This document shows, piece after piece, positions 5,645 through 19,756 of a DNA stretch of 64,000 nucleotides. Positions within the stretch are counted from its first letter, which is position 1. Each line of letters opens with the position of its first letter. The position numbers and the translations under genes are program-made. Origin of the DNA: Escherichia coli (GTDB lineage Bacteria; Pseudomonadota; Gammaproteobacteria; Enterobacterales; Enterobacteriaceae); assembly GCF_041248615.1 (NCBI RefSeq), contig NZ_CP158426.1; one strand, written 5' to 3'. The notes beneath the pieces were generated by a model. That model was not told the DNA's origin. It was given only the letters and a program-made list of their open reading frames with translations, and did no database searches.

Positions 5645-5877
5645 CTATCGCACAGGATGGATAAGATAATTCGCCTTTGTCGGAAAAGGGGGCGGAATTT
5701 CTTCTGTGAGGTTTAATGGTGGCGCATCTTCTCTCATTTTTAACAAAATCGCCTGTGATGGCTGAAATTTTGTAGAGTGAGTTGTCGTCATCGCTGACGT
5801 TTTTTCCGTCTCTTTATAGCTCGTCTCACTTCCACCACCAGAAATGGAAAATGCAAAAACATTGCATGCCATAATAG
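5645..5877 (-). pseudogene. ypdI: ypdI lipoprotein gene remnant, 5' end and promoter removed at the IS1 boundary
   Basis: Minus-strand ORF encodes ...MACNVFAFSISGGGSE... with the candidate lipobox Cys at residue 3 of the remaining frame, so a signal peptide is missing; frame runs directly into the IS1 left end at 5878. Confidence 0.6.
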
Positions 5878-5932
5878 GGTGATGCTGCCAACTTACTGAT
5901 TTAGTGTATGATGGTGTTTTTGAGGTGCTCCA

Positions 5933-6208
5933 GTGGCTTCTGTTTCTATCAGCTGTCCCTCCTGTTCAGCTACTGACGGGGTGGTGCGTAACGGCAAAAG
6001 CACCGCCGGACATCAGCGCTATCTCTGCTCTCACTGCCGTAAAACATGGCAACTGCAGTTCACTTACACCGCTTCTCAACCCGGTACGCACCAGAAAATC
6101 ATTGATATGGCCATGAATGGCGTTGGATGCCGGGCAACCGCCCGCATTATGGGCGTTGGCCTCAACACGATTTTCCGCCATTTAAAAAACTCAGGCCGCA
6201 GTCGGTAA
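5933..6208 (+). CDS. insA: IS1 InsA (91 aa, transposition repressor / N-terminal part of the transposase)
   Basis: [43 protein letters not shown] with zinc-finger cysteines. Confidence 0.97.
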
Positions 6209-6630
6209 CCTCGCGCATACAGCCGGGCAGTGACGTCATCGTCTGCGCGGAAATGGACGAACAGTGGGGATACGTCGGGGCTAAATCGCGCCAGCGCTGG
6301 CTGTTTTACGCGTATGACAGGCTCCGGAAGACGGTTGTTGCGCACGTATTCGGTGAACGCACTATGGCGACGCTGGGGCGTCTTATGAGCCTGCTGTCAC
6401 CCTTTGACGTGGTGATATGGATGACGGATGGCTGGCCGCTGTATGAATCCCGCCTGAAGGGAAAGCTGCACGTAATCAGCAAGCGATATACGCAGCGAAT
6501 TGAGCGGCATAACCTGAATCTGAGGCAGCACCTGGCACGGCTGGGACGGAAGTCGCTGTCGTTCTCAAAATCGGTGGAGCTGCATGACAAAGTCATCGGG
6601 CATTATCTGAACATAAAACACTATCAATAA
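6127..6630 (+). CDS. insB: IS1 InsB frame (transposase C-terminal part; InsAB' is made by -1 frameshift)
   Basis: 167-aa ORF in the -1 frame overlapping the insA 3' end; slippery AAAAAAC at 6184-6190. Confidence 0.95.
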
Positions 6631-6645
6631 GTTGGAGTCATTACC

Positions 6646-7222
6646 TAATGCATTAAGTGCTGTGCGCGATGTATTGCGCGAGAACCAGGATATTTATTTA
6701 GTTAATGAAGGTGCAAATACCCTGGATAATGCACGAAATATTATTGATATGTATAAACCACGTCGCCGTCTGGATTGTGGTACCTGGGGTGTCATGGGCA
6801 TCGGTATGGGCTATGCCATCGGTGCTAGCGTGACCTCTGGTTCTCCGGTTGTCGCCATTGAAGGTGATAGTGCTTTTGGTTTCAGTGGGATGGAGATTGA
6901 AACGATTTGTCGATATAACCTGCCGGTGACGATCGTTATTTTTAATAATGGCGGCATTTACAGAGGAGACGGTGTTGATCTCAGTGGCGCTGGTGCACCA
7001 TCACCAACGGATCTGCTGCACCATGCAAGGTATGACAAATTAATGGATGCGTTTCGTGGCGTTGGCTATAACGTCACTACGACAGATGAACTTCGTCATG
7101 CTTTAACCACCGGTATTCAGTCGCGCAAACCGACCATTATTAATGTGGTCATCGACCCTGCAGCAGGAACTGAAAGTGGCCATATTACCAAACTTAACCC
7201 AAAACAAGTCGCTGGTAATTAA
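6646..7222 (+). pseudogene. oxc: oxalyl-CoA decarboxylase, 3' fragment only (C-terminal ~190 of ~564 aa)
   Basis: Frame right after the IS1 right end encodes [58 protein letters not shown]...GDSAFGFSG, a thiamine-diphosphate-binding C-terminal domain; no N-terminal or middle domain present. Confidence 0.85.
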
Positions 7223-7290: not shown

Positions 7291-8235
7291 ATGCTAACAT
7301 TTTTTATTGGCGATTTATTGCCTATTATCGTAATCATGCTGTTGGGTTATTTTAGCGGCAGACGAGAAACTTTTTCAGAAGATCAAGCCCGGGCATTTAA
7401 TAAACTGGTATTAAACTACGCTCTTCCTGCGGCCCTATTTGTTTCTATTACCCGGGCAAACAGGGAAATGATTTTTGCGGACACTCGCCTGACCCTTGTA
7501 TCACTTGTGGTTATTGTCGGATGTTTCTTTTTCTCCTGGTTTGGTTGCTACAAATTTTTTAAACGTACTCATGCAGAAGCAGCAGTATGTGCATTAATTG
7601 CAGGTTCACCTACCATCGGATTCCTGGGATTTGCAGTTCTCGATCCTATTTATGGTGATTCCGTATCAACAGGTTTAGTTGTAGCAATTATTTCTATTAT
7701 TGTTAACGCAATTACTATTCCTATTGGTCTGTATTTGCTGAATCCTTCCTCAGGAGCAGATGGTAAGAAGAATAGTAATCTGAGCGCATTAATTTCTGCG
7801 GCAAAGGAGCCAGTAGTATGGGCACCTGTTCTGGCAACGATCCTGGTGTTGGTTGGGGTAAAAATTCCGGCAGCATGGGACCCAACCTTTAATCTGATTG
7901 CGAAGGCTAACTCAGGGGTAGCGGTATTCGCTGCGGGGTTGACTCTGGCTGCACATAAATTCGAGTTCAGTGCTGAAATTGCTTATAACACCTTCCTGAA
8001 GCTGATTCTGATGCCACTGGCGCTGCTTCTCGTGGGTATGGCATGTCATTTGAACAGCGAACATTTGCAGATGATGGTACTGGCAGGCGCCTTACCGCCG
8101 GCATTCTCCGGAATCATTATTGCCAGCCGGTTTAATGTCTACACCCGCACTGGTACAGCATCATTGGCTGTGAGCGTACTGGGCTTTGTCGTCACGGCTC
8201 CTTTGTGGATTTATGTCAGTCGACTGGTTTCATAA
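7291..8235 (+). CDS. yfdV: AEC-family membrane transporter YfdV (314 aa)
   Basis: 314-aa polytopic membrane ORF downstream of the oxc fragment. Confidence 0.9.
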
Positions 8236-8263
8236 TTAATCATGTTATTGATTTTACATAAAT

Positions 8264-8294
8264 GCCGAAGTGTCTTTTCACCTTCGGCTTTTTT
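8264..8294 (+). terminator. intrinsic terminator between yfdV and yfdE
   Basis: Stem gccgaag(tg)/(ca)ccttcggc followed by TTTTTT. Confidence 0.65.
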
Positions 8295-8308
8295 CAAGGC
8301 ATAAGCAA

Positions 8309-9454
8309 ATGACAAATAATGAATGCAAAGGGCCGTTTGAAGGCTTATTAGTTATCGATATGACACATGTCCTTAATGGACCTTTCGGAACTCAACTTCT
8401 TTGTAATATGGGCGCAAGGGTAATTAAAGTTGAGCCGCCGGGTCATGGTGATGATACCCGCACATTTGGTCCCTATGTGGATGGGCAGTCACTCTATTAC
8501 AGTTTTATTAATCATGGCAAAGAGAGTGTGGTTCTTGATTTAAAGAATGCTCACGATAAAAGTATATTTATAAATATGCTTAAACAAGCTGATGTATTAG
8601 CTGAGAATTTTCGCCCAGGTACAATGGAAAAACTGGGGTTTTCATGGGAAAGGTTACAAGAAATCAACCCGCGCCTCATCTATGCTTCATCGTCGGGTTT
8701 CGGGCATACCGGTCCGTTAAAAGATGCTCCTGCCTACGATACCATTATTCAGGCAATGAGCGGGATAATGATGGAAACAGGGTACCCTGATGCTCCTCCA
8801 GTGCGTGTTGGTACCTCTCTTGCGGATCTATGCGGCGGTGTCTATTTATTCAGCGGAATAGTGAGTGCACTTTATGGTCGCGAAAAGAGCCAGAGAGGGG
8901 CGCATGTCGATATAGCGATGTTTGATGCCACGCTGAGTTTTCTGGAGCATGGTCTGATGGCATATATTGCGACAGGGAAGTCACCACAACGCCTGGGAAA
9001 TCGCCATCCCTACATGGCACCTTTTGATGTTTTTGATACTCAGGATAAGCCGATTACGATTTGTTGTGGTAATGACAAGCTTTTTTCTGCGTTATGCCAG
9101 GCACTGGAGCTTACAGAACTGGTTGATGATCCCCGATTTATCAGCAATATTTTACGCGTACAAAACCAGGCTATTCTTAAACAATATATTGAGCGGACGT
9201 TAAAAACACAGGCAGCTGAAGTTTGGTTAGCCAGAATACATGAAGTTGGTGTACCCGTAGCGCCGTTATTAAGTGTGGCTGAGGCCATTAATTTGCCACA
9301 AACTCAGGCGAGAAATATGTTGATTGAAGCCGGGGGAATAATGATGCCGGGTAATCCGATAAAAATCAGCGGCTGCGCGGACCCGCATGTTATGCCGGGA
9401 GCGGCAACGCTCGACCAGCATGGGGAACAAATTCGCCAGGAATTCTCATCGTAA
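8309..9454 (+). CDS. yfdE: family III CoA-transferase (acetyl-CoA:oxalate CoA-transferase), 381 aa
   Basis: ORF 8270-9454; product begins MTNNECKGPFEGLLVIDMTHVLNGPFGTQLL at the internal ATG 8309, CaiB/BaiF-type fold. Confidence 0.88.
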   Translation: MTNNECKGPFEGLLVIDMTHVLNGPFGTQLLCNMGARVIKVEPPGHGDDTRTFGPYVDGQSLYYSFINHGKESVVLDLKNAHDKSIFINMLKQADVLAENFRPGTMEKLGFSWERLQEINPRLIYASSSGFGHTGPLKDAPAYDTIIQAMSGIMMETGYPDAPPVRVGTSLADLCGGVYLFSGIVSALYGREKSQRGAHVDIAMFDATLSFLEHGLMAYIATGKSPQRLGNRHPYMAPFDVFDTQDKPITICCGNDKLFSALCQALELTELVDDPRFISNILRVQNQAILKQYIERTLKTQAAEVWLARIHEVGVPVAPLLSVAEAINLPQTQARNMLIEAGGIMMPGNPIKISGCADPHVMPGAATLDQHGEQIRQEFSS

Positions 9455-9508: not shown

Positions 9509-12500
9509 TTAGTCATTTTGTTGACAGAAAACAGCAATCTCCTGGTCCAGCTCTGCAATGTGTTCTTTAACAGAGTTCAGCAGCTGAAGAATTTCAGGCT
9601 TACTGTCATCTGAAACAGGTGTTATTTCTAACTGATGGCTAATATTAATCAACTTTTGCAAATTCAGGATGTTAGCCGCACCGTGGATGCGATGAATACA
9701 CTGATGGAAAGTTCTGTTGTCGCCAGCTTCTAGTGCATGAAACGCAGCGGGTAGATCTTTATGCGTTTCATGCTGGAAAGTCATGAGAATCTCCTGCATC
9801 AGTTGTAGATCGTTCGCCGTATTATTTTTCAGGGCCTCGATATCAAGGTGGCGATACTGAGGTGCAATAGGCGCAACCTGGTGTAACTGACTTAAATGTG
9901 TTTTCATTACATCCAGGGTCAACGGTTTGAACAAACATAAGTTCATGCCGTAATTTAACCCTTTTTCACGTTCGTTAGCCTGTGCGTTGGCTGTAAGCCC
10001 CCAGATGGGTAAGGAAGAATTTTGCTCACGGAGTTTGCGAGTCAACTCAAAACCATCCATATTCGGCATATTAACGTCAGTAATAAGCAGATCATAATGT
10101 TGCATACTGACTTTGTGTAGCGCTTGCACACCATCAGTTGCTTCATCAACATCATATCCTAATAGGTTTAGCTGGCGTTTGAGTAATAGCCTGTTGGTCG
10201 GATGATCATCCGCGATTAATATGCTCAACTTTTCAGGGAGTGTCATGGGTTGTTCTGCTTTTGCCTCGACAGTCGCCACTTGTTGGGTAATTTCTACCGG
10301 GATTGTGATCGTAAATGTCGTTCCTATGCCTGGATGACTTTCTAATGACAAATCGCCCTGCATGTTTTTAATTAATTCTTTGCAGATCATTAAGCCTAAA
10401 CCAGAACCTGTTTGCTGACGACCTGCACTTGTTTGGCTATAGCGTTTAAACAGTTGTTGTTGTTCTTCCTGTGATAATCCACTTCCAGAATCCATAATCG
10501 TCATTTTGATTACAGCGTGGTTGTCATCAATGTTAACCAGGGAGGTCGTAATTTTTACTGCCCCCTCGGTGGTAAATTTGAGAGCATTGCTCAGTAAATT
10601 AGATAAGACCTGCTTAAACGCCTGAGGGTCGATCTTAACCAGGTAATGTTCAGGAAACGTACTGCTGCAACTTAATGCGATCGATTTGCTTGCAGCAATC
10701 GCACCGAAAGAGTGACAAGTGTTCTGGACTAAAGTAGGGATATCGACCCATTGTGGTTGAAGTTGATAGTTACCCGACTCAATTTTGTCGACATCAAGGA
10801 TTTCACCAATTAAGCCGAGGAGTGATTGTCCGGTGGCGTAGGCAAGTGAAATCGCCTCCACCCGTTGCTCCTTGCTAAGACCAGAACCCGACAGAAGTTC
10901 CAGGAAGCCCATAATGGAGCTTATTGGTGTTCTTATTTCGTGACTCATTGTTGCCAGAAACTGGCTTTTTGCGACAGTTGCATTGATCGCTTTATTTCTC
11001 TCTACTTCGAGTGCATGAATTAAATCACGCGTCTCGGTAATATCTTGCCAACCACAAATATAAACAGCATGATCGCTGGCTGGCAGATTGCATAATGTAT
11101 GCCAGTGATTAATGCATCTTTTCTCTATGCCATTATCAATTTCAAATACCTGTGTGTATATTGTTCGATTTTCTTTCGTTTCTGCTGTGACTTCATGCGC
11201 ATTAGAAAAAACATCTTTAAAGGGTGAGTCACTGTTTTCTAATGGTAACATTGCATTTTTGTAGTAATCCGCAGTGAAATAATGTTCAAAAGCACTATTA
11301 TGACTAATGACATTACCTTGCCAGTTTACAACATAAGTTGGATTCGGTAAGGAATCCGAGAGTGCTTTTCGGAATGATATTTGGTTTTCTAAATCACCCT
11401 GAATGACTTTACGACGACGAACTGAGCGTAACAGGTAGAATCCCCATAAAAGGCTACTGCCAACTAATAAAACGGATAATGTCGTGACAATATAAAATTG
11501 CTCGCTATAGAGGTCCCATGTGTCAATGGTCACATTGGGCATTTTAATCCATTTTTCCGTCAGGCGCAGAACTTCGCTTGGGGGAATTGCATTCAGAGCT
11601 TTATTAATAATATCCTTAAGTTCCGGTTCTCCGCGAGGAAAAGCGAACGAAAGCGATGCATTCTGAACGCCGGGAATAAGAAAATGATAAAGTTCATTAG
11701 GATAGTAATGGTCGATCATGTAACGTGAATTTAGCTGTGTCGCGACCAGAGCATCAAGTTCACCTTCCTTGACCTTGTGAAATGCAGCGCTGGCGTTATC
11801 GACTTTTATCCACTCTACCTCCGGATACATCTCTTTTAATTGCGAATGCAGCTCATAATAATATGGAATGGCAACTTTCATTCCTTTTTTTAATGTTTGT
11901 TCACTGTCAGGCGCTTTTTGCATGACAAAAACGTAAGGCGTTGTTATGAAGGCTTCAGCAAATAAAACATTATTTTCTCTATCTTCACTATAAATAGCAC
12001 CGGGTAATATATCCCATCCGCCGGGATTCAGCTGTGTTCCAGCATGGATATTGTGTGAAACGGTGATCGGAGAAAAATTTAAACCTGTTTGCAAGGTAAT
12101 AATATTAAGAATATCCCCCATAACGCCCCGAACCGAGCCATTTTCATCCGTCATAGAATAGGGAGGGGAGTAAGGATTTTCCAGCACCTTTAAATCGGGA
12201 TGCTGCTTAATCCACTGTTTTTCATGTTCAGTGAGTTCTAATGGTTTGTTCAGAAAGGCCAGGTTTCCTGTATCAAGCCAATTTTGTGATACTTCATAGC
12301 GAACTTCGTTTGTCAAAGCATCAACAAATCGATTGAGTACTTCATTAAGAACGACAGATTCTTTTCTGGTCAAGAAAAAATTATATTGACGCGGTGAGTT
12401 ATAATATTTCACTACATTTAAGGAGTGAGTGAAATAGCGGGAAATCATACTGCTGGTAATAATGTTACTACCAATAAAGTAATCATTCTGTCCGGCTGAG

Positions 12501-13102
12501 ACGGATGCTAATGCCTGATATAAATTTGTAAAAGAGATAATTGTTGCTTTTGGAAATGATTGATGAATTACCTCGTCTGGAGGGTAATTTGCTACCCGAG
12601 CAATATTTACTGGTTTTGATGAGGTAAGCGGTCTCATTGAATCGTGAAGGGTGGTGACGAGCGCCGGAAAGGTAATTATCAGCGGTTTGGTTGCAGCAAT
12701 GTCATCATTAAGAGGCGGCGAAGCAACTAAATGTGATAACACTATATCGACTTCCCCTTCTGTAAGCGCGTCCATTGCTTTTTGATGATCTGCGTATTCC
12801 CGGAGTGTTAATTTGATATTTAACGCTCTTTTTAAAAGATTTAAATAATCAGCATTAATACCACGAACCCGTTGCTGCGAATCGGTATGCAACAAAGTAG
12901 CCGTTTGGGACTTGTGTACTGCAATCACAAGATTTTTTTTGCTCGCTAACCAACGTAATTCCTTGTTGCTCAGACGTAGTGGATCAAGCGTGACACGGTT
13001 GTTACTACTGATGCCACGATATTCGATGTAATCTTCGTCTGCGAAACTTATGGTCGACCAAAGACCACAACAGAGAAGAATAATATAGGGTAAAAACTTC
13101 AT
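9509..13102 (-). CDS. evgS: hybrid sensor histidine kinase EvgS (1197 aa)
   Basis: 1197-aa ORF: two periplasmic solute-binding-like domains, TM segment, PAS, HisKA/HATPase (SHEIRTP), receiver and HPt domains. Confidence 0.95.
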   Translation of the reverse strand: MKFLPYIILLCCGLWSTISFADEDYIEYRGISSNNRVTLDPLRLSNKELRWLASKKNLVIAVHKSQTATLLHTDSQQRVRGINADYLNLLKRALNIKLTLREYADHQKAMDALTEGEVDIVLSHLVASPPLNDDIAATKPLIITFPALVTTLHDSMRPLTSSKPVNIARVANYPPDEVIHQSFPKATIISFTNLYQALASVSAGQNDYFIGSNIITSSMISRYFTHSLNVVKYYNSPRQYNFFLTRKESVVLNEVLNRFVDALTNEVRYEVSQNWLDTGNLAFLNKPLELTEHEKQWIKQHPDLKVLENPYSPPYSMTDENGSVRGVMGDILNIITLQTGLNFSPITVSHNIHAGTQLNPGGWDILPGAIYSEDRENNVLFAEAFITTPYVFVMQKAPDSEQTLKKGMKVAIPYYYELHSQLKEMYPEVEWIKVDNASAAFHKVKEGELDALVATQLNSRYMIDHYYPNELYHFLIPGVQNASLSFAFPRGEPELKDIINKALNAIPPSEVLRLTEKWIKMPNVTIDTWDLYSEQFYIVTTLSVLLVGSSLLWGFYLLRSVRRRKVIQGDLENQISFRKALSDSLPNPTYVVNWQGNVISHNSAFEHYFTADYYKNAMLPLENSDSPFKDVFSNAHEVTAETKENRTIYTQVFEIDNGIEKRCINHWHTLCNLPASDHAVYICGWQDITETRDLIHALEVERNKAINATVAKSQFLATMSHEIRTPISSIMGFLELLSGSGLSKEQRVEAISLAYATGQSLLGLIGEILDVDKIESGNYQLQPQWVDIPTLVQNTCHSFGAIAASKSIALSCSSTFPEHYLVKIDPQAFKQVLSNLLSNALKFTTEGAVKITTSLVNIDDNHAVIKMTIMDSGSGLSQEEQQQLFKRYSQTSAGRQQTGSGLGLMICKELIKNMQGDLSLESHPGIGTTFTITIPVEITQQVATVEAKAEQPMTLPEKLSILIADDHPTNRLLLKRQLNLLGYDVDEATDGVQALHKVSMQHYDLLITDVNMPNMDGFELTRKLREQNSSLPIWGLTANAQANEREKGLNYGMNLCLFKPLTLDVMKTHLSQLHQVAPIAPQYRHLDIEALKNNTANDLQLMQEILMTFQHETHKDLPAAFHALEAGDNRTFHQCIHRIHGAANILNLQKLINISHQLEITPVSDDSKPEILQLLNSVKEHIAELDQEIAVFCQQND

Positions 13103-13106
13103 GTGG

Positions 13107-13721
13107 TTAGCCGATTTTGTTACGTTGTGCGAATGTGTAAAGATCCATCAGTGATTTACATTCTAATTTTTCCATCAGGCGACTTTTATAAGTGCTGACA
13201 GTTTTGTTGCTGATGAACATTTTTTCCGCAATGTCATTATTATCCTTGCCATCAAGAATATATCGCATGACACTAATTTCTTGTTTCGATAAGGAGTCGA
13301 GTTTTTGCTGGTCGGACGTTAAACTTCCAACAAACCGGTTGAGAGAGAAGGGGAAATAGCAGTAGCCATTTTTTGCAGCTTCAATAGCCGCAATGATATT
13401 GTTCATGCCTTCTTTTTTACTCACGAATCCATTAGCGCCAGCATCAGCACAATGTTTCCCGTAAAAATGGTCATTTTTAGCGGAGACGATAATAATAATT
13501 CCGCTATATTGGCGCTTCCTCAGCGTTTCTAACACCTGGATACCGTTAACTCCGGGGATATCGACATCAATGATGACGATATCAGGTTTAAGTGTTTCCA
13601 CCCGCTGAACGGCACTTCCCCCTTCAGTCAACTCCGCTAAGATTTCAATATCGTTTTTGATCAATAAATTACGAATTGCTGCGATAGCAAGAGGATGGTC
13701 ATCAATAATTATTGCGTTCAT
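13107..13721 (-). CDS. evgA: NarL/LuxR-family response regulator EvgA (204 aa)
   Basis: 204-aa ORF MNAIIIDDHPLAIAAIRNLL with receiver domain and C-terminal LuxR helix-turn-helix; 4 bp upstream of evgS. Confidence 0.95.
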   Translation of the reverse strand: MNAIIIDDHPLAIAAIRNLLIKNDIEILAELTEGGSAVQRVETLKPDIVIIDVDIPGVNGIQVLETLRKRQYSGIIIIVSAKNDHFYGKHCADAGANGFVSKKEGMNNIIAAIEAAKNGYCYFPFSLNRFVGSLTSDQQKLDSLSKQEISVMRYILDGKDNNDIAEKMFISNKTVSTYKSRLMEKLECKSLMDLYTFAQRNKIG

Positions 13722-13945
13722 AGATTATTCCCTTTGCAATGAAGCATCTCCCTTCTCCCTGTAGTAATACAGACATAAGGCATCATCTCATTTTCTCAAT
13801 AAAAATAAGAAAATTTGAGCTTCCTTTAAGATAATTCGACAAGTATACCATATAAATAGTCGGCATAAATGAAATGTCAACAATAAAATCAGGGATTGTA
13901 CCGATGATTTATAGTTTCACATTAGCACTATAAGTCTTCTCACTA

Positions 13946-13963
13946 ATCCTACATGCGTAAGAA
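13946..13963. promoter_or_regulatory. EvgA box (18-bp inverted repeat) in the evgA-emrK divergent region
   Basis: ATCCTACATGCGTAAGAA, i.e. TTCTTACG-CA-TGTAGGAT on the other strand, fits the EvgA consensus TTCYTACA-N2-TGTARGAA as I recall it. Confidence 0.6.
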
Positions 13964-14136
13964 TTGTATTGCAAAAGCTACGGTTTAGTCCTCTGTTGTT
14001 TTTTTTGCACCTCATTTAAATTAGGCCTCCAACGTTCCTGGGACAATGTGCAACACATGCACTGTGTTTGATATGAAGAATGAATACTCTTTTCATTCAA
14101 TTCATAAATTTCATCTATGCGAAATGAGAGATAATA

Positions 14137-15300
14137 GTGGAACAGATTAATTCAAATAAAAAACATTCTAACAGAAGAAAATACTTTTCTTTATTGGCGG
14201 TAGTTTTATTTATTGCGTTTTCAGGTGCCTATGCCTATTGGTCAATGGAATTAGAAGACATGATTAGTACAGATGACGCCTATGTCACGGGGAATGCAGA
14301 TCCAATTTCTGCACAAGTTTCAGGCAGCGTCACTGTCGTTAATCATAAAGATACGAACTACGTTCGACAGGGTGACATTTTAGTCTCACTGGATAAGACT
14401 GATGCCACTATCGCACTCAATAAAGCTAAAAATAATCTGGCCAATATTGTTCGGCAAACGAATAAACTGTACTTACAGGATAAACAATACAGTGCCGAAG
14501 TCGCTTCAGCACGTATTCAGTATCAACAATCTTTAGAAGATTATAACCGTCGTGTACCTTTAGCGAAGCAGGGGGTTATTTCAAAAGAAACGCTGGAGCA
14601 TACCAAAGATACGTTAATAAGTAGCAAAGCGGCATTGAATGCTGCTATTCAGGCTTATAAAGCGAATAAAGCTTTAGTAATGAACACACCATTAAACCGT
14701 CAGCCACAAGTCGTTGAAGCGGCGGATGCAACCAAAGAAGCCTGGTTGGCGCTTAAACGTACGGATATTAAGAGTCCGGTTACCGGCTATATTGCCCAGC
14801 GAAGTGTTCAGGTCGGCGAAACAGTGAGTCCCGGACAATCGTTAATGGCTGTCGTACCGGCACGTCAAATGTGGGTTAATGCTAACTTTAAAGAAACACA
14901 ACTCACGGATGTACGGATTGGTCAATCGGTCAATATTATCAGCGATCTTTATGGTGAAAATGTTGTGTTTCATGGTCGGGTGACAGGGATCAATATGGGA
15001 ACCGGCAATGCGTTCTCCTTATTACCTGCACAAAATGCGACAGGGAACTGGATCAAAATCGTTCAGCGTGTACCGGTTGAAGTTTCTCTTGATCCAAAAG
15101 AACTCATGGAACATCCCTTACGTATTGGTTTATCGATGACAGCAACTATTGATACGAAGAACGAAGACATTGCCGAGATGCCTGAGCTGGCTTCAACCGT
15201 GACGTCCATGCCTGCTTATACCAGTAAGGCTTTAGTTATCGATACCAGTCCGATAGAAAAAGAAATTAGCAACATTATTTCGCATAATGGACAACTTTAA
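14137..15300 (+). CDS. emrK: multidrug efflux periplasmic adaptor EmrK (387 aa, GTG start)
   Basis: HlyD/EmrA-family ORF with N-terminal TM anchor; stop overlaps the emrY start (TAATG). Confidence 0.92.
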   Translation: MEQINSNKKHSNRRKYFSLLAVVLFIAFSGAYAYWSMELEDMISTDDAYVTGNADPISAQVSGSVTVVNHKDTNYVRQGDILVSLDKTDATIALNKAKNNLANIVRQTNKLYLQDKQYSAEVASARIQYQQSLEDYNRRVPLAKQGVISKETLEHTKDTLISSKAALNAAIQAYKANKALVMNTPLNRQPQVVEAADATKEAWLALKRTDIKSPVTGYIAQRSVQVGETVSPGQSLMAVVPARQMWVNANFKETQLTDVRIGQSVNIISDLYGENVVFHGRVTGINMGTGNAFSLLPAQNATGNWIKIVQRVPVEVSLDPKELMEHPLRIGLSMTATIDTKNEDIAEMPELASTVTSMPAYTSKALVIDTSPIEKEISNIISHNGQL

Positions 15301-16838
15301 TGGCAATCACTAAATCAACTCCGGCACCATTAACCGGTGGGACGTTATGGTGCGTCACTATTGCATTGTCATTAGCGACGTTTATGCAAATGTTGGATTC
15401 CACTATTTCTAACGTCGCAATACCGACAATATCTGGCTTTCTGGGAGCATCAACAGACGAAGGCACCTGGGTTATCACCTCGTTTGGCGTAGCAAATGCC
15501 ATTGCGATCCCTGTTACCGGCAGGCTGGCACAAAGAATAGGCGAATTAAGATTATTTTTACTTTCAGTCACTTTTTTTTCGCTGTCTTCCTTAATGTGTA
15601 GTTTATCGACCAATCTTGATGTGCTGATATTTTTTAGAGTCGTTCAGGGATTAATGGCGGGGCCGTTAATTCCACTGTCACAGAGTTTATTATTAAGGAA
15701 TTATCCACCAGAAAAAAGAACATTTGCTCTGGCATTATGGTCTATGACCGTGATTATCGCGCCGATATGTGGGCCGATATTGGGCGGTTATATTTGTGAT
15801 AACTTTAGCTGGGGTTGGATATTTTTAATCAATGTCCCTATGGGGATTATCGTCCTGACATTATGCTTAACCTTACTTAAAGGAAGAGAAACTGAGACTT
15901 CACCGGTCAAAATGAATCTACCAGGACTGACCCTGTTAGTGCTCGGTGTTGGTGGCTTGCAAATTATGCTCGATAAAGGGCGCGATCTGGATTGGTTCAA
16001 CTCGAGTACAATAATAATACTAACAGTAGTGTCAGTTATTTCTCTGATCTCTTTAGTCATTTGGGAGTCGACCTCAGAGAATCCGATTCTTGACCTCAGT
16101 TTGTTTAAGTCCCGTAATTTCACCATTGGTATTGTGAGTATCACATGCGCGTATTTATTTTACTCTGGGGCAATAGTCCTTATGCCGCAATTACTCCAGG
16201 AAACGATGGGGTATAATGCGATATGGGCCGGACTTGCCTATGCGCCCATCGGCATCATGCCGCTATTAATATCGCCTTTGATAGGACGTTATGGCAACAA
16301 AATTGATATGCGGTTGTTGGTGACATTTAGTTTTTTAATGTATGCGGTTTGCTATTACTGGCGTTCTGTGACATTTATGCCAACGATTGATTTTACAGGC
16401 ATCATTTTGCCACAGTTTTTCCAGGGATTCGCCGTCGCCTGTTTCTTTTTACCCTTAACAACGATTTCGTTTTCAGGTTTGCCAGATAATAAATTTGCCA
16501 ATGCCTCGAGTATGAGTAATTTTTTTCGTACCTTGTCAGGATCAGTTGGTACGTCGTTGACAATGACGCTGTGGGGACGACGCGAATCGTTACACCATAG
16601 TCAGTTGACAGCAACCATCGATCAATTTAACCCCGTGTTTAATTCATCGTCACAAATTATGGATAAATACTATGGTTCGCTTTCAGGGGTTCTTAATGAA
16701 ATTAATAATGAAATAACTCAGCAGTCACTTTCAATTTCTGCAAATGAGATTTTCCGTATGGCGGCTATTGCTTTTATCTTACTTACGGTTTTGGTTTGGT
16801 TTGCGAAACCGCCGTTTACAGCGAAAGGCGTTGGGTGA
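15300..16838 (+). CDS. emrY: MFS multidrug efflux pump EmrY (512 aa, 14 TM)
   Basis: 512-aa EmrB-like MFS transporter ORF. Confidence 0.93.
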   Translation: MAITKSTPAPLTGGTLWCVTIALSLATFMQMLDSTISNVAIPTISGFLGASTDEGTWVITSFGVANAIAIPVTGRLAQRIGELRLFLLSVTFFSLSSLMCSLSTNLDVLIFFRVVQGLMAGPLIPLSQSLLLRNYPPEKRTFALALWSMTVIIAPICGPILGGYICDNFSWGWIFLINVPMGIIVLTLCLTLLKGRETETSPVKMNLPGLTLLVLGVGGLQIMLDKGRDLDWFNSSTIIILTVVSVISLISLVIWESTSENPILDLSLFKSRNFTIGIVSITCAYLFYSGAIVLMPQLLQETMGYNAIWAGLAYAPIGIMPLLISPLIGRYGNKIDMRLLVTFSFLMYAVCYYWRSVTFMPTIDFTGIILPQFFQGFAVACFFLPLTTISFSGLPDNKFANASSMSNFFRTLSGSVGTSLTMTLWGRRESLHHSQLTATIDQFNPVFNSSSQIMDKYYGSLSGVLNEINNEITQQSLSISANEIFRMAAIAFILLTVLVWFAKPPFTAKGVG

Positions 16839-18292: not shown

Positions 18293-18520
18293 TTAGATGA
18301 TAAATGACAGCAGGAATGTGCCCGCCAGAGCGACGACTGAAGCGATAAATGTCGCGGTCGTATAGTATTTAAATGTTTCATTGAGCGTAGCGTCGCAATA
18401 TTGCTTCACCAGCCAGAAAAGCGAGTCCGTAACGATCGTGCAGCCAATCGCACCTGAACCGATAGCAATCGCAATAATTTCCGGGCTGATGTCGGGATAC
18501 AGCGGCAGCACAATGATCCA
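18293..18520 (-). pseudogene. dsdX: dsdX D-serine permease (GntP family), 3' fragment only (~72 codons)
   Basis: Minus-strand frame encodes a GntP-family C-terminal TM segment ...[59 protein letters not shown]; in-frame stop at 18524-18526, no upstream dsdX sequence, cscR begins ~230 bp further on. Confidence 0.8.
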
Positions 18521-18753: not shown

Positions 18754-19749
18754 ATGGCTTCATTAAAGGATGTCGCACGCCTGGCGGGAGTGTCGATGAT
18801 GACAGTCTCCCGGGTGATGCATAATGCAGAATCTGTGCGTCCTGCAACGCGTGATCGCGTATTGCAGGCAATCCAGACCCTGAATTATGTTCCTGATCTT
18901 TCCGCCCGTAAGATGCGCGCTCAAGGACGTAAGCCGTCGACTCTCGCCGTGCTGGCGCAGGACACGGCCACCACTCCTTTCTCTGTTGATATTCTGCTTG
19001 CCATTGAGCAAACCGCCAGCGAGTTCGGCTGGAATAGTTTTTTAATCAATATTTTTTCTGAAGATGACGCTGCCCGCGCGGCACGTCAGCTGCTTGCCCA
19101 CCGTCCGGATGGCATTATCTATACAACAATGGGGCTGCGACATATCACGCTGCCTGAGTCTCTGTATGGTGAAAATATTGTATTGGCGAACTGTGTGGCG
19201 GATGACCCAGCGTTACCCAGTTATATCCCTGATGATTACACTGCACAATATGAATCAACACAGCATTTGCTCGCGGCGGGCTATCGTCAACCGTTATGCT
19301 TCTGGCTACCGGAAAGTGCGTTGGCAACAGGGTATCGTCGGCAGGGATTTGAGCAGGCCTGGCGTGATGCTGGACGAGATCTGGCTGAGGTGAAACAATT
19401 TCACATGGCAACAGGTGATGATCACTACACCGATCTCGCAAGTTTACTCAATGACCACTTCAAATCTGGCAAACCAGATTTTGATGTTCTGATATGTGGT
19501 AACGATCGCGCAGCCTTTGTCGCTTATCAGGTTCTCCTGGCGAAGGGGGTACGTATCCCGCAGGATGTCGCCGTAATGGGCTTTGATAATCTGGTTGGCG
19601 TCGGGCATCTGTTTTTACCGCCGCTGACCACAATTCAGCTTCCACATGACATTATCGGGCGGGAAGCTGCATTGCATATTATTGAAGGTCGTGAAGGGGG
19701 AAGAGTGACGCGGATCCCTTGCCCGCTGTTGATCCGTTGTTCCACCTGA
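18754..19749 (+). CDS. cscR: LacI-family sucrose operon repressor CscR (331 aa)
   Basis: Product begins MASLKDVARLAGVSMMTVSRVMHN (helix-turn-helix) at the internal ATG 18754, followed by a periplasmic-binding-protein-like sugar-binding domain; the longer upstream ORF start is rejected. Confidence 0.9.
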   Translation: MASLKDVARLAGVSMMTVSRVMHNAESVRPATRDRVLQAIQTLNYVPDLSARKMRAQGRKPSTLAVLAQDTATTPFSVDILLAIEQTASEFGWNSFLINIFSEDDAARAARQLLAHRPDGIIYTTMGLRHITLPESLYGENIVLANCVADDPALPSYIPDDYTAQYESTQHLLAAGYRQPLCFWLPESALATGYRRQGFEQAWRDAGRDLAEVKQFHMATGDDHYTDLASLLNDHFKSGKPDFDVLICGNDRAAFVAYQVLLAKGVRIPQDVAVMGFDNLVGVGHLFLPPLTTIQLPHDIIGREAALHIIEGREGGRVTRIPCPLLIRCST

Positions 19750-19756
19750 TATTATG

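Follow-up and report, generated by a model that had tools for sequence, protein, structure and literature searches.

A conserved site in the evgA–emrK spacer of Escherichia coli is probably the EvgA operator of emrKY

The evgAS and emrKY operons of E. coli are divergent and are separated by a single intergenic spacer, within which a binding site for the response regulator EvgA had been proposed from sequence. The locus raises two related questions: whether this site is a genuine EvgA box in the strain considered here and, if so, which of the two operons it serves. The DNA examined, referred to below as the window, is a stretch of 64,000 nucleotides (64 kb), and all positions are counted from its first letter. 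The spacer itself spans 415 bp (13722–14136) and contains the box. Its G+C content is 33.5%, compared with 49% for the window as a whole.

On the minus strand, evgA (13107–13721) encodes a response regulator of 204 amino acids with no differences from K-12 EvgA. The protein consists of a receiver domain (Response_reg) and a LuxR-type helix–turn–helix domain (GerE), the DNA-binding domain is intact, and two solved EvgA structures (PDB 5f64 and 8zwn) match the sequence. The sensor kinase gene evgS (9509–13102, also on the minus strand) encodes 1197 residues, 26 of which differ from K-12 EvgS, many of them in the periplasmic domain. Since natural EvgS variants that are unresponsive to acid have been described, notably in phylogroup B2 (PMC5706723), the signal that acts on the box in this strain may differ from that in K-12. 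On the plus strand, emrK (14137–15300, 387 amino acids) encodes a protein 100% identical to K-12 EmrK and forms an efflux-pump operon with emrY (15300–16838, 512 amino acids). A megablast search of complete E. coli genomes found the region in 5,398 of 5,426, with the genes annotated as evgS, evgA, emrK and emrY. We note that about 20 of approximately 5,440 matches to the evgA–emrK region lie on plasmid-typed records and that some genomes carry two copies.

The proposed box is an imperfect inverted repeat of 18 bp at 13946–13963, ATCCTACA-TG-CGTAAGAA, to which no strand is assigned. It comprises half-sites at 13946–13953 and 13956–13963. The plus strand of the window reads ATCCTACATGCGTAAGAA at these positions and the reverse complement is TTCTTACGCATGTAGGAT. 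The 18 bp inverted repeat of the EvgA regulon reportedly follows the consensus TTCYTACA-NN-TGTARGAA, which is said to have been described by Masuda and Church in 2003. The box agrees with this consensus at 14 of the 16 specified bases, seven of eight in each half-site. Its two mismatches to TTCYTACANNTGTARGAA are at 13946 (A for T) and at 13956 (C for T). As in the operator of a dimer, the two half-sites are inverted, lie 2 bp apart and are related by dyad symmetry, but the arms ATCCTACA and TTCTTACG are self-complementary at only five of eight positions. The inverted repeat of the original prediction therefore stands as a pair of inverted half-sites, each a good match to the consensus, and falls short as a palindrome. 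The significance of the box lies in its consensus match, location and conservation rather than in its palindromy.

The two mismatches and the imperfect symmetry of the arms are what might be expected of a chance occurrence or of a decayed, non-functional site, and we considered this explanation against the background frequency of such matches. When up to three mismatches to the consensus were allowed, the box was the sole match in the whole 64 kb window. At this threshold 0.72 matches are expected in a shuffled window and 53% of shuffles had a match somewhere, which lends the chance explanation some support; a match of this quality somewhere in 64 kb is unremarkable. With at most two mismatches, however, the expectation fell to 0.03 matches per window and at least one match was present in only three of 100 shuffles. 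A position weight matrix derived from six K-12 EvgA boxes, with the emrK box left out, ranked the site first in the window at 17.2 bits, far above the runner-up at 7.8 bits, and this score was attained anywhere in only six of 200 random Markov-1 sequences of 64 kb. As the spacer makes up approximately 0.65% of the window, the rough joint probability of a chance match within it is about 2 × 10^-4, and chance is effectively excluded. The motif scan that had been proposed as a check on the site thus places it at the top of the window.

The consensus itself can be judged from the K-12 genes that EvgA is known to control. The closest matches upstream of these genes carry one mismatch at safA, two at ydeP, one at yegR, none at frc, and one and three at the two sites of yfdX, while 0.06–0.2 matches per locus would be expected by chance, a figure far below that observed. 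We regard the consensus as valid because matches precede every K-12 gene reported to be directly activated by EvgA (safA, ydeP, yegR, yfdX twice and frc). This is in line with the published statement that an EvgA site is present at all directly regulated genes (PMC4283999). De novo k-mer discovery in five K-12 target upstream regions returned mainly AT-rich k-mers and no exact 6–8-mer of the box that was common to the five, as a result of the Y/R degeneracy of the motif.

The boxes of ydeP, safA–ydeO, yegR, yfdX and frc share both the TTCYTACA-NN-TGTARGAA pattern and the promoter layout of the emrK box. Within this set the emrK box is among the weaker matches, with 17.2 bits compared with 19–27 bits for the other K-12 EvgA boxes. 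It differs from them in that the innermost base of one half-site is G rather than A and the outermost base of the other is not T, and it is the only one of the set to be placed between divergent operons. Similar operators are recognized by homologous regulators that also combine a receiver with a GerE helix–turn–helix, as in the case of Bordetella BvgA (for example at the fha promoter), NarL with its heptamers and RcsB with the RcsB box. For regulators of the BvgA/NarL/FixJ type the binding unit is a dimer and the target an inverted, heptamer-like repeat that precedes the −35 region, and the BvgA half-site TTTCCTA resembles the TTCCTA of EvgA. BvgA, NarL and RcsB are nevertheless different proteins from EvgA, with different regulons. 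Cooperative spreading of additional dimers toward the −35 region is documented for BvgA, whereas for EvgA such spreading is only suggested here, by a conserved 8-mer described below. A reading of TAAGAAT (13958–13964) as part of an RcsB box was dropped, as the second half of the RcsB box is absent.

Comparison with K-12 MG1655 indicates that the site is orthologous to the one in that strain. The MG1655 spacer carries TTCTTACGCCTGTAGGAT at about 2483513–2483530 of NC_000913.3, with both half-sites and the flanking conserved blocks identical to those of the window and with the same gaps to the emrK and evgA start codons (173 and 224 nt, respectively). The sole difference within the box is at 13954, in the unspecified central dinucleotide, which on the evgA-sense strand is CA in the window and CC in K-12. 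The conservation extends to a wider alignment of eight spacers from the window, K-12, O157:H7, three other E. coli, a divergent genome labelled E. coli (L005) and a genome labelled Yersinia vastinensis (L006), the EvgA of which is 94% identical. The most conserved 25 nt blocks of this alignment start at 13948–13951 and consist of the box together with the adjoining TTGTATT. Among the six E. coli spacers there are 26 variable columns, only one of which falls inside the box, namely the central position 13954. The divergent lineages carry better boxes than the window does, with no mismatches in L005 and one in L006. On the emrK side the box is adjoined by a conserved flank, TTGTATTGCAAA (13964–13975, plus strand), the TTGTATT and CAAA motifs of which are invariant in all eight spacers, L006 included. 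With half-sites that are the same as those of the experimentally studied K-12 site, in the most conserved block of the spacer, the box is very hard to reconcile with chance or decay, and we consider that explanation barely credible. The observation of an EvgA-type box at 13946–13963 is confirmed.

The EvgA homologues of Hafnia, Klebsiella (KvgA), Enterobacter and Buttiauxella, which are 66–71% identical, have no box within 3 kb on either side, and the open reading frame lists for three of these distant homologues contain no emrK-like divergent neighbour. The absence of the box from these loci, and of the emrK neighbour where reading frames were listed, shows the box to travel with the emrK–evgA arrangement. 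Two database records deserve mention. The presence of an emrK–evgA locus in L006 (NZ_CACVAF010000001.1) under a Y. vastinensis label suggests horizontal transfer or mislabelling. A 398 bp contig labelled Rhizobium cauense (NZ_JAEUAT010000078.1) encodes an EvgA N-terminus 100% identical to that of E. coli, which suggests contamination.

For the binding of EvgA to the spacer and the dependence of emrKY on EvgA, we draw on the literature. PMC9496106, PMC8174306 and PMC5706723 cite Kato 2000 for binding of EvgA to the emrKY promoter region and for its direct activation. Tanabe 1998 is likewise cited at second hand for binding in K-12, and the early work as summarized in PMC5573083 also has EvgA regulating emrKY. 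In Shigella, loss of either evgA or evgS abolishes induction of emrK (PMC6393483). Together with the orthology of the box to the K-12 site, these reports on K-12 and Shigella support the EvgA-dependent expression of emrKY that the original prediction envisaged. In our view, the most consistent interpretation is that the box is the operator through which EvgA switches on emrKY, to which we assign a probability of about 0.87. The present analysis shows that the site matches the consensus, is unique in the window, is orthologous to the K-12 site and is conserved, that the regulator is intact, and that five other EvgA promoters have the same layout. As an EvgA operator of emrKY, the site is already known, conserved and ordinary.

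In the proposed mechanism EvgS would phosphorylate EvgA, and a dimer of this NarL/FixJ-family regulator would bind the half-sites at 13946–13953 and 13956–13963 through its GerE-type helix–turn–helix. Bound EvgA-P would then activate, from about −74.5, a sigma-70 promoter of low strength that faces emrK, possibly with a second contact of EvgA or RNA polymerase at an 8-mer at −41 to −34. The box would in this way link the sensing of acid, alkali metal and redox state by EvgS to expression of the EmrKY–TolC efflux pump, which contributes to bile-salt tolerance and to the survival of Shigella in macrophages (PMC6393483). For annotation, the gain is that a regulatory site and a likely emrK promoter, the latter predicted, can be fixed in this strain.

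The position of this promoter can be predicted from a comparison of K-12 EvgA promoters, each anchored on its box and oriented toward its own gene, with the proximal box used for yfdX. The six promoters (emrK, ydeP, safA, yegR, frc and yfdX) share the same arrangement, in which the box is followed by 23 nt, an 8-mer, a further 21–22 nt and a −10 hexamer. At emrK the 8-mer is AGTCCTCT (13987–13994, plus strand), 23 nt 3' of the box and at a predicted −41 to −34 of the promoter. Its counterparts at equal offset are AGTCCTAT in safA, AGTCTTAT in ydeP, AATCCTAT in yegR and TCTCTGAT in both frc and the proximal yfdX promoter. In an ungapped, box-anchored alignment the information content peaks at offsets 24–33 with 9.1 bits, compared with 4.9 ± 0.5 bits for the null. 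This peak was attained by none of 5000 randomly shifted control alignments, although safA and ydeP, like frc and yfdX, look like paralogous pairs, so that the six promoters are not fully independent.

The layout comparison predicts a −10 element for EvgA-dependent transcription of emrK at 14016–14022 (plus strand), reading TTAAAT or TAAATT. The corresponding −10-like hexamers are TATATT in safA, TAATTT in ydeP, TATTAT in yegR, TATTCT in frc, TATGAT in yfdX and TAGAAT in the emrK promoter of L006. A simple sigma-70 consensus scan of the spacer gave no match 3' of the box and a single match that points away from the relevant promoters. Such a miss is to be expected for an activator-dependent promoter, but it lends the predicted emrK promoter no support. 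The ydeP leader begins at −178 relative to its start codon (PMC11210196), which puts the ydeP transcription start 66 nt past its box, centres that box at −74.5 and leaves the −10 hexamer correctly placed. Applied to emrK, this spacing gives a predicted start at about 14029 ± 2 and a leader of approximately 107 nt, and the box would be centred near −74.5 of this start. The gap from the box to the emrK start codon is 173–175 nt in the window, K-12, L005 and L006. We note that a different, constitutive emrK promoter has been predicted (TTGATA-17-TTTCAT, window 14067–14095; PMC3946193), from which the box would sit near −147.

The TCCT core of the 8-mer repeats that of the box half-site and is four helical turns (42 bp) away from the left, upstream half-site. 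One possibility is that the 8-mer is an additional, weak half-site for EvgA; another is that it is a special −35 region. Extended to the regulon, this would mean that all EvgA-activated promoters are rigid, with a box near −74.5 and a second 8-mer (AGTCCTMT or TCTCTGAT) that offers a second EvgA dimer a site of low affinity, or RNA polymerase a specialized contact, in the manner of BvgA. We put this forward tentatively and think it somewhat unlikely to hold in full. A second site of this kind, if real, would account for the box acting on emrK rather than on evgA. No description of the 8-mer layout was found in the accessible literature. The rigid arrangement of box, 8-mer and −10 hexamer in the EvgA regulon is the only mildly new point here and is possibly under-described. 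Two further short sequences occur on the other side of the box. One, AGTCTTCT (13932–13939), resembles the downstream 8-mer and lies 6 nt upstream of the box. The other, ACTATAAG (window 13926–13933), precedes the box by an equal distance in the emrK and safA promoters, and ACTAT is invariant in all eight spacers.

The same spacing bears on how EvgA would act from the box. The main effect of bound EvgA could be to relieve the silencing of this AT-rich spacer by H-NS rather than to recruit RNA polymerase directly. The low G+C content of the spacer relative to the window fits this idea, as does the 'HNS' flag on the emrK–evgA spacer in a genomic SELEX table (PMC3946193), and the box, at approximately 75 bp from the predicted start, is further away than most direct class II contacts. 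Anti-silencing, however, usually tolerates variable spacing. The spacing between box, 8-mer and −10 hexamer is rigid and preserves helical phase across the six promoters, a regularity that favours stereospecific contact, either with RNA polymerase or with a second EvgA dimer. We therefore regard relief of silencing as the main mode of action as improbable, while noting that it is compatible with the reading of the box as the EvgA operator of emrKY.

The original prediction had also taken the site as support for autoregulation of evgAS, so that the box would be bidirectional and, besides controlling emrKY, would mediate positive autoregulation of the regulator operon. In favour of this reading, an inverted repeat has no intrinsic direction. 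The core promoter region of evgA is at 13835–13880 on the minus strand, with a −35 hexamer TTGACA at 13880–13875 and a −10 hexamer TATACT at 13847–13842, both read from the sequence; PMC3946193 likewise lists a promoter with TTGACA that faces evgA in this spacer. The evgA leaders start at −114, from a sigma-S promoter, and at −124 (PMC11210196), and these lengths correspond to starts at window positions 13835 and 13845, respectively. This puts the centre of the box near −119.5 for the first start and near −109.5 for the second, approximately 65 bp beyond the −35 hexamer. The 8-mer and −10 layout was looked for on the evgA side of the box and is absent. Moreover, a 29 bp deletion between the box and evgA in L006 shifts their spacing, whereas the distance from the box to emrK in the same genome is kept within 2 nt.

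Published accounts of evgAS autoregulation conflict and are mostly against it. Early work, as summarized in PMC5573083, has EvgA binding upstream of evgAS and regulating that operon as well as emrKY, and EvgA is 'reported to be autoregulatory' in PMC11210196. On the other hand, evgAS is stated not to be autoregulated in PMC8174306, citing Eguchi 2003. When emrK is induced in macrophages evgA mRNA stays flat (PMC6393483), published data have the levels of EmrK, EmrY and Frc rising while those of EvgA and EvgS do not change, and evgA fusions did not respond to mild acid (PMC11210196). Given this mixed record, the distance of some 110 or 120 bp from the box to the evgA starts and the variable spacing between box and gene, the claimed support for autoregulation appears overstated. 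The box probably controls emrKY and not evgAS. A bidirectional role is unlikely on this evidence, although it would not conflict with control of emrKY. Between the evgA promoter and the gene lies an intact leader peptide reading frame, evgL (MLHCKGNNL; 13718–13747, minus strand), which is annotated in K-12 and the stop codon of which overlaps the ATG of evgA. Translational coupling of evgL to evgA has been reported, together with CsrA targeting (PMC11210196).

K-12 has neighbouring EvgA boxes at yfdX and frc, and these are deleted in the window. In their place is an IS1 element of 768 bp (5878–6645, plus strand; InsB reading frame 6127–6630), which adjoins a 5'-truncated ypdI (5645–5877), joined at codon 15 to the left end of IS1, and a 3' remnant of oxc (6647–7222) to its right. 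The window is 100% identical to two segments of E. coli NRZ14408 (NZ_LT599825.1), 1600001–1605877 and 1609549–1667671. The 3,671 bp that separate these segments are absent from the window, flush with the left end of IS1. NRZ14408 carries the same IS1 inside oxc. Lost with the gap are the start of ypdI, yfdX with its two boxes, frc with its perfect box and the 5' portion of oxc, so that three EvgA boxes are missing (two of yfdX and one of frc). A search of 5,426 complete E. coli genomes found the junction between IS1 and the oxc remnant only in NRZ14408 and the junction between ypdI and IS1 in none. The gap has the appearance of an IS1-mediated adjacent deletion; as every other base of the window agrees with a single public record, it may instead be an artefact of assembly or editing.

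The deletion of the yfdX–frc–oxc locus noted in the original prediction is borne out by this comparison, and so is the remark that the emrKY site may be the only EvgA target left in the window. No other EvgA-like box was found in the 64 kb, either with the consensus at up to three mismatches or with the weight matrix, and the remark is therefore correct. The deletion leaves emrKY as the sole EvgA-controlled operon in the neighbourhood of evgAS, in a strain that lacks the EvgA-controlled oxalate genes (yfdX–frc–oxc) through an IS1-associated deletion. The yfdV and yfdE genes (7291–9454), the distal members of the EvgA-induced yfdX–frc–oxc–yfdV–yfdE cluster, survive behind IS1 and the oxc fragment without the three upstream EvgA boxes and hence without their EvgA-dependent promoters, and their expression would need read-through from IS1 or some other promoter.

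Elsewhere in the window, on the far side of emrKY, a 3' fragment of dsdX (18293–18511) adjoins a csc sucrose-utilization cluster (18754–22330) that is inserted beside dsdA. The cluster comprises a cscR-like LacI regulator, cscA, a kinase and an MFS transporter. The dsdX/csc/dsdA segment is a known variable region of E. coli.
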